In this document: positions 6,449 to 29,871 of the stretch, piece by piece | Layout: every line of letters starts with the position of its first letter | Numbering within the stretch: the first letter of the stretch is position 1 | Assembly (NCBI GenBank): GCA_002009975.1 | Contig: MTLP01000014.1 | Span: forward strand, 1 to 29,871 | DNA: 29,871 nt | Reading direction: 5' to 3' | Origin: Thermococcus sp. JdFR-02 | Lineage (GTDB): Archaea > Methanobacteriota_B > Thermococci > Thermococcales > Thermococcaceae | Notes under the pieces: model-generated | Database searches by the model: none | Told to the model about the DNA's origin: nothing | The model's input: only the letters and a program-made list of their open reading frames with translations | Translations under genes and position numbers: made by a program

Positions 6449-6724
6449 ATGGAAATAGTAAGAGCACATCTTAAAATCTACGGTAGGGTTCAAGGGGTAG
6501 GATTTAGGTGGAGCATGCAGAGAGAAGCAAGAAAGCTTGGATTAAGTGGATGGGTTAGAAATATGCCAGATGGAACAGTTGAAGCTGTTGTTGAAGGGGA
6601 AAGGGAAAGGGTAGAAGCTCTAATAGGATGGGCTTATCAAGGACCCCCTTTAGCAAGGGTAACAAGAATAGAAGTAAAATGGGGAATTCCCAAAGGAGAG
6701 AGAGGATTTAGGATTCTGCATTAA
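6449..6724 (+). CDS. acyP: Acylphosphatase
   Basis: [21 protein letters not shown]; 91 aa. Confidence 0.93.
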
Positions 6725-7302
6725 CTTTTTTCCACAACAACTTTTTTAGGACAGTAGCGAACTTCACAATAGGCACAAACGAAGTTTTCCTTCCTTTTCT
6801 CTGGTGTGTGGAGTATTAACTTTTTGAATCCCGGGGTGTCCTTTATTTTTATAAAGACCTCAACCGGGATAGTACCATCAATAACGATATATGCTTTGCT
6901 ATCCTCTTGTCTCAAATTCCTGCTAAATATCTCCATTATTGAAATATTATTTTTAGAGAGCAAATCCAAAACTTTTGCGACTGCTTGAGAATATAGGGAT
7001 TTCTCTATCTCTATCTCTAAAACTTCCCATCCCATGATTGGAGCAACCTCTATTAAGCTTGGCAGAGGAGTTAAACGCTCAAATATCAACTTTAGTGGAT
7101 ACGTTTTCTCTATGTATTCAATAGTATGATAGATTATCTTCCTGTTAACCCCAATAATCCTCGATAGCTCACTTATTGGAACCTCAACATTCCTAAGATA
7201 TATTTTGCCGTTTTTAACACTTAAACCATTTTCAAAAAGAAATTCAGCAACTTTCTTTCTTGCGGGGAAGTTTTTGAAATAAACCTCTAATATGAGCATC
7301 AT
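6721..7302 (-). CDS. Predicted transcriptional regulator with HTH and ACT domain (archaeal 'regulator of amino acid metabolism' family)
   Basis: [21 protein letters not shown]-like [19 protein letters not shown]-like C-terminal half, CxxCx4C tail. SD GAGGTGG before ATG at 7302. Confidence 0.75.
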
Positions 7303-7419
7303 TTTTGCCACCTCTTATACAAATGTGGGTAAGAATGTGTATTTAAGTCTTTCTATTAATCGGTAGGGAAAAGGTTAAATTCCAAGGAAGATTAAAAGCA
7401 AATTTTAGGAGGTGTGAGA

Positions 7420-12830: not shown

Positions 12831-14204
12831 TTAAGTTTTAGTCACAATGCAGTACTGTATAAATCTAATAGAAAGTGCTGAGAGCACCAAAATTAAAGAG
12901 GCAAAAATAGTCTTATCAAGAGTTAAAATGAAAAAATAGGCAATACCAACTAATGTTAAGAAAGACTCCGCTTTAACAATCTTTCCTATTCTCTCTATAT
13001 TTTTAATTGCAATGTACGCTATTAATGCTATTTGGACAAAACCATCTTTTATCAGATTTAAAAACATAGCCCAAAACGTATATCCACTTAAAAACTTCTT
13101 GGGTGCTGGGACATCAAAGAATAAGAGAACCAACAAAGCTCCAAGTATCGTTAAGCCTAAGTGCATGTAATTGGGCTTGTATCTCTTAGAATGCGACAAA
13201 ATAAAGGCTATTGGGATAGTTATAGCATAAATATTGGAAGATATTGCAAGAAGTACAGAAATGGAAAGTAAGACATTTTCTAATTTTGCCTCTCTACTGC
13301 CTAGCTTGAAGGAAAAGTTCATCATTAAAGCGAAGGCCAATATGGATGTTAGTATGAAGAAAAGGGCAAAATCCATTGTTTTTACATACTCCCTAAAGAT
13401 TGGGGAAGAAAAAGCTAATCCAAAGATTAAAAATCCAAGCTCTCTCGAGGACTTAGGGGCTAAGAAAAAGGTAAGGGTTATTATTAGGAGTATCATTGTG
13501 ATCTGTAGAGAAAAAACAGCTTCTTCAGATGGGGAAAATATTCTAAACCATAGGTACATAATGTAGCTTATGAAAGGTGCGTTCCCCTGACCGAATTTAA
13601 TTTCCAAAGCCTTTTGAAAAGCCGATTTGATGAATCCCTGGCTCATTCCAAACTCGTTTGTATTGAGGATCCAGAGAATCAGCAAAAGCATTGAGAGCAA
13701 ATAGAGCCATTTCACATATGTATCATATTTTGAGAGGATATAGAAGAAAGAGAGAATAAGCAGGGCAGAGATTATTAACAACCCATAGATTTCTTTACTT
13801 GTAAATTCTCTGATCTCAGAAAAAGCTTCTTGAACTTTAAAGAGATTCTCCTCACTTCCAGTAACAAGAATAGCATTGTAAACGACGATTATATTTGGAT
13901 TTAAAGACTCCTCTGGAGGAAGATTTGTTAATTCCCAAACCTCTCTCATTTGAGGATTATCATAAACATTTCCAACAAGAATTACAGTTTCGTTCCCCTG
14001 AGCTTTTATTTTTGATAGCTTTCCCTCTATATACCAACTCCAGGATTTTGATGCAAGACTCTCACCAGGAATTACAACATAGGTTGAGTTAGAGCTTAAG
14101 AACTCAGCAAAAGCTTCTTTGTTTGGATAAAATCGCACATTAGAAGAGGCACTAGCTAAGGGAATGAAAAGTAGTAGGATAATAATCACAATAAACTTCC
14201 TCAT
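12831..14204 (-). CDS. Membrane protein: signal peptide, extracellular N-terminal domain and multi-TM domain (GT-C-like)
   Basis: Signal peptide MRKFIVIIILLLFIPLASA; about 120-aa soluble domain; roughly 10 hydrophobic segments; SD GGTGGTGA. Confidence 0.7.
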   Translation of the reverse strand: MRKFIVIIILLLFIPLASASSNVRFYPNKEAFAEFLSSNSTYVVIPGESLASKSWSWYIEGKLSKIKAQGNETVILVGNVYDNPQMREVWELTNLPPEESLNPNIIVVYNAILVTGSEENLFKVQEAFSEIREFTSKEIYGLLIISALLILSFFYILSKYDTYVKWLYLLSMLLLILWILNTNEFGMSQGFIKSAFQKALEIKFGQGNAPFISYIMYLWFRIFSPSEEAVFSLQITMILLIITLTFFLAPKSSRELGFLIFGLAFSSPIFREYVKTMDFALFFILTSILAFALMMNFSFKLGSREAKLENVLLSISVLLAISSNIYAITIPIAFILSHSKRYKPNYMHLGLTILGALLVLLFFDVPAPKKFLSGYTFWAMFLNLIKDGFVQIALIAYIAIKNIERIGKIVKAESFLTLVGIAYFFILTLDKTIFASLILVLSALSIRFIQYCIVTKT

Positions 14205-26082: not shown

Positions 26083-27369
26083 TCATCCTTCTATTTGTGG
26101 ATGATACCTAATCTCAACTCCAAATTTTGTCAGGCTTTTAATCATGCCTACTTGAATATAAGCCAAAATTTTTGTCTTTTCTCCATATTCAATGTTTAAA
26201 ATTTCCCCAATTGAATTTAAGAGGGCAACAATTTTGGGGACTATTTCTTTTTCCTCCACAACGATCTCAAATGCCCTAAACTTAGGCAGTGTTAGCAAAA
26301 CATTCTCGAGAGCATCATAAAGCTCTTCCAATTGATTATGCTTTGCTGAAACACTAACTACCCCTGATAACGCTATTCCCCTCTCATTAGCAATTTCAAT
26401 CAATGCCCTTTTCTTGTACTCAACATCTTCTTCGATTGCAAGGTCTTTTTTGTTTAAAACAACTATCAATGGCTTATCAAGGGCTTTAAGCTCCCTTAAT
26501 ACCCTTATAGATGCTAAAAACTTTCTTCTAATTTCTCTCCAAGGTTCACTTACATCCAGCACAAGCAATACAATATCAGCCTTTGTTATCTCCTCTAAAG
26601 TTGAATGAAAGGCTTCAACTATAAATGGAGGCAAATCATCGATGAATCCAACTGTATCGGTAACAAGAACTTTCTTTTGTCCAACTTTAAATCCTCGGGT
26701 AGTTGTAGCTAATGTTGTGAACATTTGATTTTTAGCTGGAATCTCTTCCCTAGCCAAAACATTTAGCAATGTTGACTTTCCAACATTTGTGTATCCCGCT
26801 AAAGCTACTAAAATGAACCCAACTTCCTCTCTTCTCTTCCTCTTTACTTCCCTATCCTCTTTTACTTTTCTAAGCTCTTCCCTTATTTTGCTCATTCTAT
26901 AACGGATGTGCTTCAAGTATTGGTTGATTTGATACTCACCCATGCCCTTAAAACCTGGATTCTCACCCATCTTAGCCCTTCTAATTGCCTCCTTAACAAG
27001 GGGGAGTTCGTATTGAAGATTCGCCAACTCAACTTGAAGCTTAGCTTCCTTAGAGTTTGCTCTCTTTTCAAAGATCTCTAAAACAAGCTGCCATTTATCC
27101 ATTACATCAACTTTAAGTTCCCTCACTATGTTAAAAGCTTGAGAAGGCGTTAACTTGTTTGCAAAAATAATTTTGTCTGGTTTAAGCTCTTTAACCTTCT
27201 CCTTTAATTCCTCAAGCTTTCCCTTTCCTATGTTATATCTTGGATGTTCTTTCCTAACTTGCTCAATTATTTCCAAAACTTCGTAGTCGGCACTACGTAA
27301 AAGCTCTTCAAATTCATCTCTGTTTATCCTTTTATTTGGGGAATGTCTAATAACTCCTATTACCTTCAT
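26083..27369 (-). CDS. hflX: GTPase HflX
   Basis: LEIFEKRA..KEAKLQVELA, GYTNVGKS, DTVGFI, AFHSTLEE, NKKD, VSA. Confidence 0.95.
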   Translation of the reverse strand: MKVIGVIRHSPNKRINRDEFEELLRSADYEVLEIIEQVRKEHPRYNIGKGKLEELKEKVKELKPDKIIFANKLTPSQAFNIVRELKVDVMDKWQLVLEIFEKRANSKEAKLQVELANLQYELPLVKEAIRRAKMGENPGFKGMGEYQINQYLKHIRYRMSKIREELRKVKEDREVKRKRREEVGFILVALAGYTNVGKSTLLNVLAREEIPAKNQMFTTLATTTRGFKVGQKKVLVTDTVGFIDDLPPFIVEAFHSTLEEITKADIVLLVLDVSEPWREIRRKFLASIRVLRELKALDKPLIVVLNKKDLAIEEDVEYKKRALIEIANERGIALSGVVSVSAKHNQLEELYDALENVLLTLPKFRAFEIVVEEKEIVPKIVALLNSIGEILNIEYGEKTKILAYIQVGMIKSLTKFGVEIRYHPQIEG

Positions 27370-27492: not shown

Positions 27493-28638
27493 TCAGCACC
27501 CAGTACCCTCTTGCCAGACACAAACCCTATCCGGATTAACTTCCTCCGCAATCACCCATCCCCTCCAAAGTAAAAGTTTGGAAACACGCCCTCTTGTTTT
27601 CCAGCAGTTAAAATCGTTAAAATCATAGACGCAGATGCCCGTTGATTCCCGAAATACTCCGGAGGTTTTTATGTCAAGGTATGCAAAAGCGAACACATCA
27701 TCTTTTGCTATCTCAATACCCTTTATCAGGGATGGTGTTTTCAGCCTCTTGTAAACTGGAGAGTTTATGATCCTTTCAATCTTTCCGCCGAAGTCAAAAA
27801 CATATATCCTCCCCGTGTAACCAACAGCATAAAGACGACCTCCGTAGATCTTCAATCCCGCAATAGCCCAATCATAGAACCCACTATCGTAGTGCCTTAA
27901 GCTGACATGCCATTTAAGAGAACCATTGAGAGAGAACGCGTAGATGTTCCCACCAGCTATGAGCGTTCCACCGGGCTCTGTTCCACCAGTTGAAAAGAAC
28001 AGTGTCCCATTGCAGTACTCAAAATCGCTGATTGCATACTCTGTACTCAGATTTCCCATCAAACTTCCATTCCTACCGAGGACTATGGCAGAACCTTTAG
28101 TAAAGGCATCGTTCGTTTCAAACGTCAGGAGGTAGCCCTCTGGAAAGATGTAAACCCATGGATACGAACCGGGAGGGGCTTTAAGAGAGTATGCAGTGCA
28201 GTTCCTGGCACAGACATAGTACGTTATGACATCAAAATTATATCTTTCCCTAACGGGATGTCTCGTTGAGTATAGCGAAAAATTACCGAGATTAACGCCG
28301 AATATCAGTTCATTTAAGTTAACACCTTCAGGCACATCAAGTTTAGTAATCGCGAAATTCTCCAAGTTGAAGTTAATTACAACACCATCTTCAACCATCG
28401 AGAGCTTATTCCCTATCAAAAAAGCCACCCTAATGTTCCGAAATTTCTTGAGAATGTTTCCATCTGAGATGTTAAGAATTAAGAGAGTGTTATTCCTAAG
28501 AGTTATGGCTTTTCCATTCCCAACACCTACCAAAGAAACGTTCTCGTATTCCCACTCGCAGTGCCTATATTCATGTGAAAGGTAAAGAATCAAAAATAGG
28601 AAGAGAAGAAAAACCGCAAATATTCTCGAAGTTCTCAT
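27493..28638 (-). CDS. Secreted or membrane-anchored protein with PQQ/WD40-like beta-propeller repeats
   Basis: N-terminal hydrophobic helix, repeats such as GNIYAFSLNGSLKW and GRIYVFDFGG, many NxS/T sequons, 8 Cys. SD GGTGGGG before ATG at 28638 (ORF open to 28659). Confidence 0.7.
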   Translation of the reverse strand: MRTSRIFAVFLLFLFLILYLSHEYRHCEWEYENVSLVGVGNGKAITLRNNTLLILNISDGNILKKFRNIRVAFLIGNKLSMVEDGVVINFNLENFAITKLDVPEGVNLNELIFGVNLGNFSLYSTRHPVRERYNFDVITYYVCARNCTAYSLKAPPGSYPWVYIFPEGYLLTFETNDAFTKGSAIVLGRNGSLMGNLSTEYAISDFEYCNGTLFFSTGGTEPGGTLIAGGNIYAFSLNGSLKWHVSLRHYDSGFYDWAIAGLKIYGGRLYAVGYTGRIYVFDFGGKIERIINSPVYKRLKTPSLIKGIEIAKDDVFAFAYLDIKTSGVFRESTGICVYDFNDFNCWKTRGRVSKLLLWRGWVIAEEVNPDRVCVWQEGTGC

Positions 28639-28649
28639 ATCTTCCCCAC

Positions 28650-29871
28650 CTATGGCCATATTGTTCTGTTTGGTTTATCCTCATGCACAAAGTTCTGTGC
28701 TCTGCTGGGATCGCATGCAAAGCATCCACCACAATGTGTGTTGCACCAGTGACACTGGCATCCAATTAAACACCCTCTACAACAAGCCAGATAATTTTCA
28801 AATATATCCAGCTCATAAGTCCCCCAAGGGACTAAGTCTGGATTTGGAAGATCCGCTCTTCCTGTTGTTAACCAACAATGAGTAGCATCACATTCAAATT
28901 GCCAAATTATATCATGTTTTACGTTACTACTATCATATGCACTGAAAAACCACTTAACTTGAATAGAATTTACAGGAGAATCTCCTAAAATTGGATCGTA
29001 AGTTAGCTCCATGGCAGTTTCCCAGTATTCATGGATATTTGAAGTTGAAGTAAACTCATATGTACAGTACTCATCGTAGAAATAGTTTATATTTGGAGTA
29101 GGAGATGTGTACATACCAACCCAAACTGCTACTTTCTGAAAGCTGTGTAAATAAGCTTGTGTTGGTAGTACAGGAGCAGATTCGCCAAAACAATAATGTA
29201 ATGAACATCCCCATCCGTTACTTATACCAACATCGATTGCTAATGGTTCTATTCCTATTGTTGTTTTCATGATTGTTTGTTGTTTTCCGATTTCTTTAAG
29301 TCTTTTGATTGTTTCTAACTTGACTCTTTCCTCTAAGTAAGCATAAATCTCATTCCAAATCCGCTTTCTCTTCTGAATAAGCTTTAACGCCTCTTCAACC
29401 GTAGCATTACCACTTCTTATCTCCTTAAGTATCTCCCTAAGCCTCATGTCAGTCTCAACGTACTCATCAAACGTTAACTCACCAGCCTGCCGGTAATATG
29501 CAATAAACCAGTCCAAGTCAACGTCTTTTCTCACTGGATGAACCTTCTCAACATACTCTCTGACCAACACATCCTCCTTAGGAAGCCTGTAATAAAGAAC
29601 TTCAACACCATGGGGAGTTTTCCTTGTATATTTTTTGACAAACTCCAAGCTTAACCTCTGCCGTTTATATGCTTCCCTTTCACTCTTTAAACCCCGTACC
29701 TCATCCTCAAGCTTAACAATCTTCTCGAGAGTCCCAACACTCTTAGTCTTGTTTAATTCTACATAAAGCTCCTGTAATTCTGCCTCTTTCTGGTTAATTA
29801 CTCTTGTTAAGTTCTCAATTTTTGCATTTACCTCACTCAAAGCCTTGTCGATGTCAAAATCTTGGCAGGAA
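28650..29871 (-). CDS. Hypothetical precursor-like protein with coiled-coil N-terminal region and Cys-rich C-terminal domain (5' end outside window)
   Basis: Frame stays open from TTG 29840 to the window edge (SCQDFDIDKAL...). E/K/R-rich helical half, then about 195 aa with 14 Cys. Confidence 0.75.
   Translation of the reverse strand, partial: SCQDFDIDKALSEVNAKIENLTRVINQKEAELQELYVELNKTKSVGTLEKIVKLEDEVRGLKSEREAYKRQRLSLEFVKKYTRKTPHGVEVLYYRLPKEDVLVREYVEKVHPVRKDVDLDWFIAYYRQAGELTFDEYVETDMRLREILKEIRSGNATVEEALKLIQKRKRIWNEIYAYLEERVKLETIKRLKEIGKQQTIMKTTIGIEPLAIDVGISNGWGCSLHYCFGESAPVLPTQAYLHSFQKVAVWVGMYTSPTPNINYFYDEYCTYEFTSTSNIHEYWETAMELTYDPILGDSPVNSIQVKWFFSAYDSSNVKHDIIWQFECDATHCWLTTGRADLPNPDLVPWGTYELDIFENYLACCRGCLIGCQCHWCNTHCGGCFACDPSRAQNFVHEDKPNRTIWP

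Follow-up and report, generated by a model that had tools for sequence, protein, structure and literature searches.

Two adjacent genes of the minus strand, here called A (28650-29870) and B, its downstream partner, lie at one end of a 29,871-nucleotide stretch of DNA from Thermococcus sp. JdFR-02 (contig MTLP01000014.1), which was analysed at its full length and is referred to as the window. The window is an entire contig (C21) of a 44-contig genome, G000, which is a metagenome bin; other C-numbers denote further contigs of this genome. An earlier note, made from the letters alone, had taken the pair for a candidate secreted, archaeocin-like effector with a cognate membrane-anchored partner. 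In this study, we describe the anatomy, polymorphism, partner genes, remnants and distribution of the A family and weigh what the pair may do. Along the minus strand the order is A, B and hflX, and the following features were recorded.

28650-29870, minus strand: open reading frame of gene A; 5' end open, 406 amino acids inside the window
29256-29870, minus strand: N-terminal helical domain of A, residues 45-249 (from the open reading frame, the full-length protein and the AlphaFold2 model)
29199-29255, minus strand: junction, a conserved motif ending in GIEPL plus a flexible variable linker, residues 250-268 (predicted local distance difference test score, pLDDT, <50 at 249-268)
28653-29198, minus strand: C-terminal beta-rich domain of A with 14 Cys (from alignments, variability profile and an AlphaFold2 model of the domain alone)
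28636-28652, minus strand: stop codon of A, Shine-Dalgarno-like GGTGGGG, 11-nucleotide spacer and start of B (read from the sequence; B homologues begin at the equivalent Met)
27493-28659, minus strand: gene B as an open frame, 388 amino acids
27493-28638, minus strand: gene B from its ATG, 381 amino acids, with a hydrophobic anchor at about 28579-28623 and a blade motif at about 27895-27969; candidate immunity or receptor partner
26083-27369, minus strand: hflX (Pfam GTP-bdg_N, GTP-bdg_M and MMR_HSR1)

The stop codon of A (TAG, 28650-28652) is followed by 11 nucleotides (gtggggaagat) and then by the ATG of B (28636-28638), and TAGGTGGGG at this stop overlaps the Shine-Dalgarno-like run GGTGGGG; the earlier note had pointed out both the overlap and the gap, and the sequence bears them out. 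The 5' end of A was found on contig C5, which has an exact overlap of 96 nucleotides with the window contig and supplies 44 extra codons, and an identical protein (P0001) on a 400,618-nucleotide contig of another assembly confirms the joined gene. Full-length A has 450 residues. Its N-terminus has a short, basic n-region followed by a hydrophobic core of 19 residues and V-F-A, which we read by eye as a Sec signal, and a CxxCxxC motif comes after the signal region, both being encoded in the 44 codons on C5; the lack of a signal peptide, which the earlier note had named as a refutation, does not apply. A hydrophobic Sec-type N-terminus was observed in 30 of 32 aligned members of the family, the exceptions being one truncated sequence and one with a twin-arginine-like leader. 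No trafficking domain was recognised in A by Pfam, the Sec-type signal being its only export feature.

The two parts of A meet at IEPL (29241-29252, residues 251-254). The 210 residues before the junction are highly charged (E 13.8, K 11.4 and R 8.1%), and their one Cys, residue 2, lies upstream of 29840; past the junction come 196 residues with 14 Cys (7.1%) and an abundance of W, Y and F. The division into a charged region free of Cys from 29840 and an aromatic half with 14 Cys, first drawn from the letters, agrees with these coordinates and counts. The AlphaFold2 model of A is a confident two-domain structure with a helix bundle (51-249), a disordered linker (249-268) and a beta-rich domain (282-449); the helices span residues 51-86, 89-125, 143-154, 163-196 and 202-249, with a hairpin at 126-135, and pLDDT is mostly >90. 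Searches of Pfam, NCBIfam, PHROGs and PADLOC brought no significant match for A, a profile search of A against PDB sequences returned coiled-coil noise alone (best E 0.0046), and the whole model had no Foldseek PDB match at E <= 0.001. The helical part gave only generic helical-bundle matches in the VIA wide search (Z up to 9.5). A ClyA/XaxA-like pore-former was considered for this domain and dropped, its sole trace being an NCBIfam match at E 0.47, absent from the top 50 VIA rows.

The C-terminal domain folded well by itself in AlphaFold2 (pLDDT 81, predicted template modelling score 0.82). Searched alone, it had no match at E <= 0.001 in Foldseek PDB or BFVD and no usable match in the ESM Atlas, and no toxin family was found for it among Pfam, NCBIfam, PHROGs and PADLOC; its best VIA wide score was Z 4.7 (root mean square deviation 3.8 Å over 104 residues), with OB-fold proteins at Z 3-4, which is too weak to name a fold, and the domain may still belong to a known one. 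A structural match to a known housekeeping enzyme, which would have spoken against an effector, was likewise absent from Foldseek PDB (whole A and C-domain) and VIA wide. The variability profile revealed a conserved core plus variable patches (residues 256-285, 331-345 and 376-405). Invariant or nearly so in the core are SIQxKxF, NxHC, a D, QxF and the Cys of ExC, and the residues invariant across 32 aligned sequences are W294, G296, C313, Q348, K350, I366 and C407. The earlier note had named unrelated C-domains as a pattern that would favour its model, and this pattern is not seen in these 32 sequences, all of which align as one homologous domain with an invariant core. The same core is retained in short relatives of 174-193 amino acids which have few Cys and no signal peptide, and because these polar positions are kept even there, the near-invariant Q, K, N, H, D and Q (Q348, K350, N421, H423, D431 and Q436) suggest a putative active or binding site, to which C313 and C424 may also belong. 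A papain-like Cys-His-Asp site made of the conserved C313, H423 and D431 was set aside, as there was no structural match in support in the VIA wide search. The short stand-alone relatives come from metagenomes (P0073, P0078, P0080, P0084 and P0091), and one, met in a metagenome scan with P0091, is encoded on a 2.6-kb contig beside a methyltransferase-like open reading frame (L047, 931-1596); a scan of the genome contigs with a short signal-less relative (P0070) gave no match.

Polymorphism was analysed on 31 full-length A genes (465 pairs), comprising near-full-length matches with fetched loci and the two copies of the window genome. The identities of the N- and C-halves are discordant in both directions, with pairs at N 92% and C 51% or N 89% and C 45%, and others at N 64% and C 90% or N 65% and C 92%. 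In sliding windows, the identity of mosaic pairs switches at residues 245-265, i.e. at IEPL, and one pair falls from 0.95 to 0.42 and 0.15 over three successive windows. Within G000, the A of the window and the second copy (on C41) are 79% identical in the N-half and 44% in the C-half, and the DNA similarity between C21 and C41 (83%) stops at window position 29238, one codon beyond IEPL. The junction which the earlier note had placed at IEPL is a real module boundary, and since both the half identities and the DNA similarity break there, we read the conserved motif before the linker as a recombination junction at which C-domain types are swapped as modules. A conserved N-half joined to unrelated C-domains, each with its own downstream gene, had been named as a test of the model; the halves are mosaic and their downstream genes differ, but the C-domains are homologous and not unrelated. 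The ratio of nonsynonymous to synonymous substitution rates (dN/dS) was 0.02-0.15 within a type and, against the closest genome, 0.06 for the C-half and 0.13 for the N-half; estimated with saturated dS, these values point to purifying selection within a C-domain type.

A Cys-rich C-part behind a disordered linker, with a conserved motif just before, is also what would be seen if A were a halocin C8-type archaeocin precursor, in which a protease cut after IEPL frees a disulfide-knotted antimicrobial product. We regard this likeness, proposed in the earlier note, as very improbable. No halocin family was found at E <= 1 in Pfam and NCBIfam, the presence of a HalC8 model in those libraries being unverified, and the architecture differs, in that the C-part is a folded domain of 196 amino acids where halocin C8 has a peptide of about 76, and the partner has a gene of its own instead of forming the N-part of the precursor. 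A recombination junction would account equally well for the conserved motif.

Gene B, read from its ATG, encodes 381 amino acids, 8 of them Cys; the protein has 9 N-x-S/T sequons, its sole hydrophobic segment lies at the N-terminus, and the count confirms the description as an anchored, sequon-rich protein with 8 Cys made before. It had also been called beta-propeller-like. In favour of this, a profile of the close relatives of B matches designed propellers via one blade motif (8prj, E 2e-15), and partners of other A copies pass the Pfam PQQ_2 model (PF13360, BamB-like) at 41.1, 31.8 and 56.0 bits against a cut-off of 27.6; B of the window itself, however, has no Pfam match above cut-off, the best being a KIB1-4 propeller at 17.4 bits against 27.4. 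One partner class bears a PEGA domain besides PQQ_2.

A same-strand gene for a protein with a hydrophobic N-terminus lies directly downstream in all 31 full-length A genes. Intact neighbours account for 27 of these partners; of the remaining four, one is read in a different frame and overlaps A, another is split, a third stands behind a frameshifted A and the last is cut by the contig end. Each A is followed by one to three partner genes, often of the PQQ-type beta-propeller kind, and the partners form about ten sequence classes linked by weak BLAST similarities. The class of the first partner tracks the A tree, with 8 changes (minimum 7, shuffled mean 18.1, 0 of 200 shuffles as low) on a quick tree of genes which, being linked, have a common history; we take this match of partner class to A clade as co-inheritance and not co-evolution. 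The co-occurrence of a downstream gene with A, on which the earlier note had staked its model, is seen in all 31 full-length A genes examined, the partner class following the A clade. Beyond Thermococcaceae, A is followed by unrelated genes, namely a 260-amino-acid polytopic membrane protein in two genomes and a lipoprotein-like helical protein in one, and these unrelated partners resemble non-homologous immunity genes. In two genomes there, a second A-like paralogue without the Cys-rich tail comes after A.

Several further observations concern the partners. The A-like paralogue just mentioned (L053 3237-4277 in G101, L054 2456-3568 in G100) is shorter than the A-like gene which it follows, occurs in another family of the class, and combines an N-anchor and a coiled coil with a C-domain cut down to its first two thirds, the Cys-rich tail being missing; it could be a decoy or antidote derived from the effector. 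The second A copy of G000 (C41, 118-3307) has three unlike anchored partners of 322, 346 and 325 amino acids after it, and by the assembly graph a fourth partner class, with which contig C23 opens, comes next (right end of C23). G079 is the closest complete genome; its A has 81% identity and goes by the source name OCC_03172 of T. litoralis. There, B is split over two frames (L007, 2716-3870; matches to residues 7-80 and 75-386), which represents either a frameshift or a sequencing error.

Decayed copies of A were observed with partners still in place. On C33 of the window genome, an internally deleted piece of A, 95% identical to the last 75 residues of the window protein, is followed by a frameshifted copy of B of 65% identity, and in public-run contigs this form occurs at depth 14.7 and the window form at 20.3. 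G094 contains a frameshifted A, a partner, a 5'-truncated A from residue 184 and a B of the class found in the window; in G076 the order is A, partner, an open reading frame ending in the last 30 residues of A, a B of the window class and another partner. At seven further loci only the tail of A is left, with a partner directly after it in six (intact in four, split in one and broken in one), and the seventh stops at a contig end. In the complete genome G075, two partner genes stand beside hflX, and neither query (window protein or C-domain profile) found an A. A contig of a relative about 95% identical retains hflX and B and diverges precisely at the stop codon of A; metatranscriptome contigs from such a relative also span hflX and B, and since DNA carry-over is possible, transcription is not claimed. 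The hflX site is a recurrent one, with hflX, A and partner in G095 (L038), two partners and then hflX in G075 (L026), and A, B and hflX in the window.

A profile search of 1.84 billion representative proteins yielded 64 relatives at E <= 0.001, and all named relatives of A are listed as 'hypothetical protein' of a Thermococcus. In the genome searches the family was restricted to one archaeal class, the Thermococci. The window protein had a match in 32 of 97 Thermococcaceae genomes, and the C-domain profile in 40 of 133 genomes in a search of phylum scope, the families contributing 32 of 96 (besides G000), 3 of 6, 2 of 7, 2 of 4, 0 of 17 and 0 of 2. Complete genomes carry 0 to 4 copies. The literature search found no paper naming the A family, although published archaeal lists or supplements may already catalogue it, and no paper with the locus tags TON_0229 or OCC_03172; in the available part of a 2026 preprint on subtilosin and halocin homologues, the family is not covered.

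This distribution bears on another idea, by which A would act outside the cell as an enzyme or binding protein for envelope or nutrient metabolism, with the propeller keeping it at the surface and targeting by viruses or competitors driving its fast evolution. The polar core conserved in signal-bearing and signal-less relatives alike would suit such a role, as would the strong purifying selection and the frequent use of PQQ-type propellers as scaffolds (Pfam PQQ_2 is named after BamB). Yet A is missing in 65 of the 97 family genomes, many of them complete, and multi-copy elsewhere, pseudogenes and remnants abound, the sites of insertion vary from genome to genome, and no enzyme fold was recognised in the VIA wide search, so that we judge this role improbable.

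The reading which we favour, and to which we give an even chance, is that A and B represent a polymorphic secreted effector with surface immunity proteins, specific to Thermococci. It is preferred because the end domain is swappable, the cognate gene is adjacent, arrays of unlike partners occur, partners outlive A, the distribution is patchy and multi-copy, and pseudogenes are frequent. A would be exported via the Sec pathway, its helical N-domain serving as the conserved carrier part and its Cys-rich C-domain, on the flexible linker after GIEPL, as the active part, of which there would be discrete types that diverged long ago. At the conserved junction, homologous recombination would move the C-domain type along with the downstream gene or genes. 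The B classes, as N-anchored ectodomains and mostly PQQ-type propellers, would stand outside the membrane and neutralise the matching C-domain. We infer that the C-domain may harm other cells, that its target would lie outside the membrane, and that B would bind and block it; cells may keep B after the loss of A because, as we propose, B protects against neighbours.

A number of points weigh against this proposal. Pfam, NCBIfam, PHROGs, Foldseek PDB/BFVD and VIA revealed neither a toxin domain nor an enzyme fold nor a pore-former. The C-domains are all homologous, whereas classic polymorphic toxins carry unrelated folds, and propeller ectodomains of 300-500 amino acids are large for immunity proteins. 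B diverges more between genomes (about 62% identity) than the cognate C-domain (87%), and the match between partner class and A clade can be explained by the common history of linked genes. The short signal-less relatives indicate that the domain is not intrinsically extracellular. The dN/dS estimates suffer from saturated dS, and some 'paralogues' may be strain variants since the window genome is a metagenome bin, yet complete single-contig genomes reach 4 copies.

The same polymorphism, mosaicism and adjacency would fit an allorecognition or adhesion pair, in which a secreted or B-held ligand with a polymorphic head binds matching propeller receptors on kin, gating aggregation, fusion and vesicle or nanotube exchange without killing. 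A and B are both extracytoplasmic by their predicted N-termini, no toxin fold was found, the types are discrete, old and under purifying selection, and one partner class has the PEGA surface domain, all of which this explanation accommodates; the available passages of the VARTIG paper (PMC8416519) raise the same alternative for another Thermococcales module. We nevertheless think it unlikely, although it is the leading alternative, given that partner genes persist where A has decayed or is absent (G075), that several unlike partners follow one A, orphans and arrays being likelier for immunity collections than for receptor-ligand pairs, and that outside Thermococcaceae the partner is a polytopic membrane or lipoprotein-like protein and not a receptor-like ectodomain. 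A shade less likely again is a self/non-self system in which the A head docks on matching propellers and decides which neighbours adhere, fuse and exchange vesicles or DNA; if true, the cassette would be the equivalent, in archaea, of kin-recognition loci and would consist of two folds without known relatives.

The rest of the window consists of ordinary core genes, including queC, pyrD, endonuclease dU, hypF, pfkB, an ABC-2 transporter, TFE, two 2-oxoacid:ferredoxin oxidoreductase sets, hycI, PHO4 and a sugar-type ABC binding protein with permeases, and three open reading frames on the minus strand had no Pfam match at E <= 1e-5 (12831-14204, 457 amino acids; 2285-2953, 222 amino acids; 6721-7311, 196 amino acids). 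A prophage or mobile-element origin of the cassette was considered and dropped, there being no notable PHROG match and the neighbours being core genes; insertion sites of A vary between genomes. A 442-amino-acid open reading frame in G077 (L039, 5087-6412), about 1.3 kb past an A-partner cassette, resembles by eye an IS200/IS605-type transposase accessory protein. The assembly of G000 breaks inside the A family, in that the ends of C5 and C21 overlap by 96 nucleotides, the end of C41 and C21 have 28 nucleotides in common, and C33 and C23 have identical last 101 nucleotides, each overlapping the start of C41 by 49 nucleotides. Because family repeats sit at contig ends (C21, C5, C41, C33, C23 and C1), the assembly is fragmented and the order of the A-family loci is uncertain.

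The cassette displays the genetic signature of a conflict or recognition system, in that modules are exchanged at a fixed junction, orphan modules occur and partners are kept without A. If the effector reading is true, it would provide a new effector fold, a new kind of surface-immunity protein and a marker of strain competition at hydrothermal vents; if the recognition reading is true, it would be relevant to the choice of partners by Thermococcales in cell fusion and DNA exchange. Direct testing is feasible because the cassette is made of two genes and is present in cultivated, genetically tractable Thermococcus species; among cultivable carriers, T. litoralis and T. onnurineus have named homologues. 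To our knowledge, archaeal conflict and recognition systems are almost wholly predicted, and we know of no characterised protein toxin of such sort in hyperthermophiles.

Among known systems, the bacterial polymorphic toxins (CDI CdiA-CT/CdiI, Rhs, MafB and LXG), reportedly summarised by Zhang et al. in 2012, likewise join a conserved N-part to a C-part that varies past a conserved junction motif, with a directly downstream partner gene that varies along with it. Further likenesses are orphaned C-terminal fragments accompanied by partner genes, and a patchy, multi-copy distribution (see also the available passages of PMC8416519). The A family differs from these toxins in that its C-domains are one homologous domain in place of assorted nucleases and deaminases, that A has a plain Sec signal and no T5, T6 or T7 apparatus, and that the partners are large anchored ectodomains. 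In E-type colicins and S-pyocins, homologous effector domains occur in discrete specificity types, each with an immunity gene right after it, and the immunity protein is a small soluble or integral membrane protein. The helical carrier part before the active domain and the discrete types with their own downstream partner are alike in A; no sequence or fold relation to these bacteriocins was found in the profile search of PDB sequences or in VIA wide, however, and no lysis gene or SOS control was seen here. Halocin C8 is a small Cys-rich peptide of about 76 amino acids released from a larger secreted precursor, whose N-part provides the immunity. A resembles it in having a Cys-rich C-terminal part within a larger secreted precursor, but its domain has 196 amino acids, its signal is of the Sec type, the candidate immunity lies in a separate gene and no homology was detected in Pfam or NCBIfam. 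The kin-recognition pairs TgrB1/TgrC1 of Dictyostelium and IdsD/IdsE of Proteus are also adjacent, co-inherited polymorphic genes with extracellular or surface products in discrete types; no homology to them is known, and the partners of A, unlike these, outlive A and pile up in arrays.

VARTIG (PMC8416519) is described in the available passages of that paper as a Thermococcales-specific hypervariable module organised like polymorphic toxin systems, with unknown function. As far as these passages go, it encodes a large multi-Ig protein (arCOG07710) with a different partner family and propellers or coiled coils are not mentioned, whereas A has 450 amino acids and neither A nor B has an Ig-type Pfam match. 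Hypervariable and Thermococcales-specific like the A family, VARTIG is, on the part of the paper available, the closest described counterpart in the same organisms.

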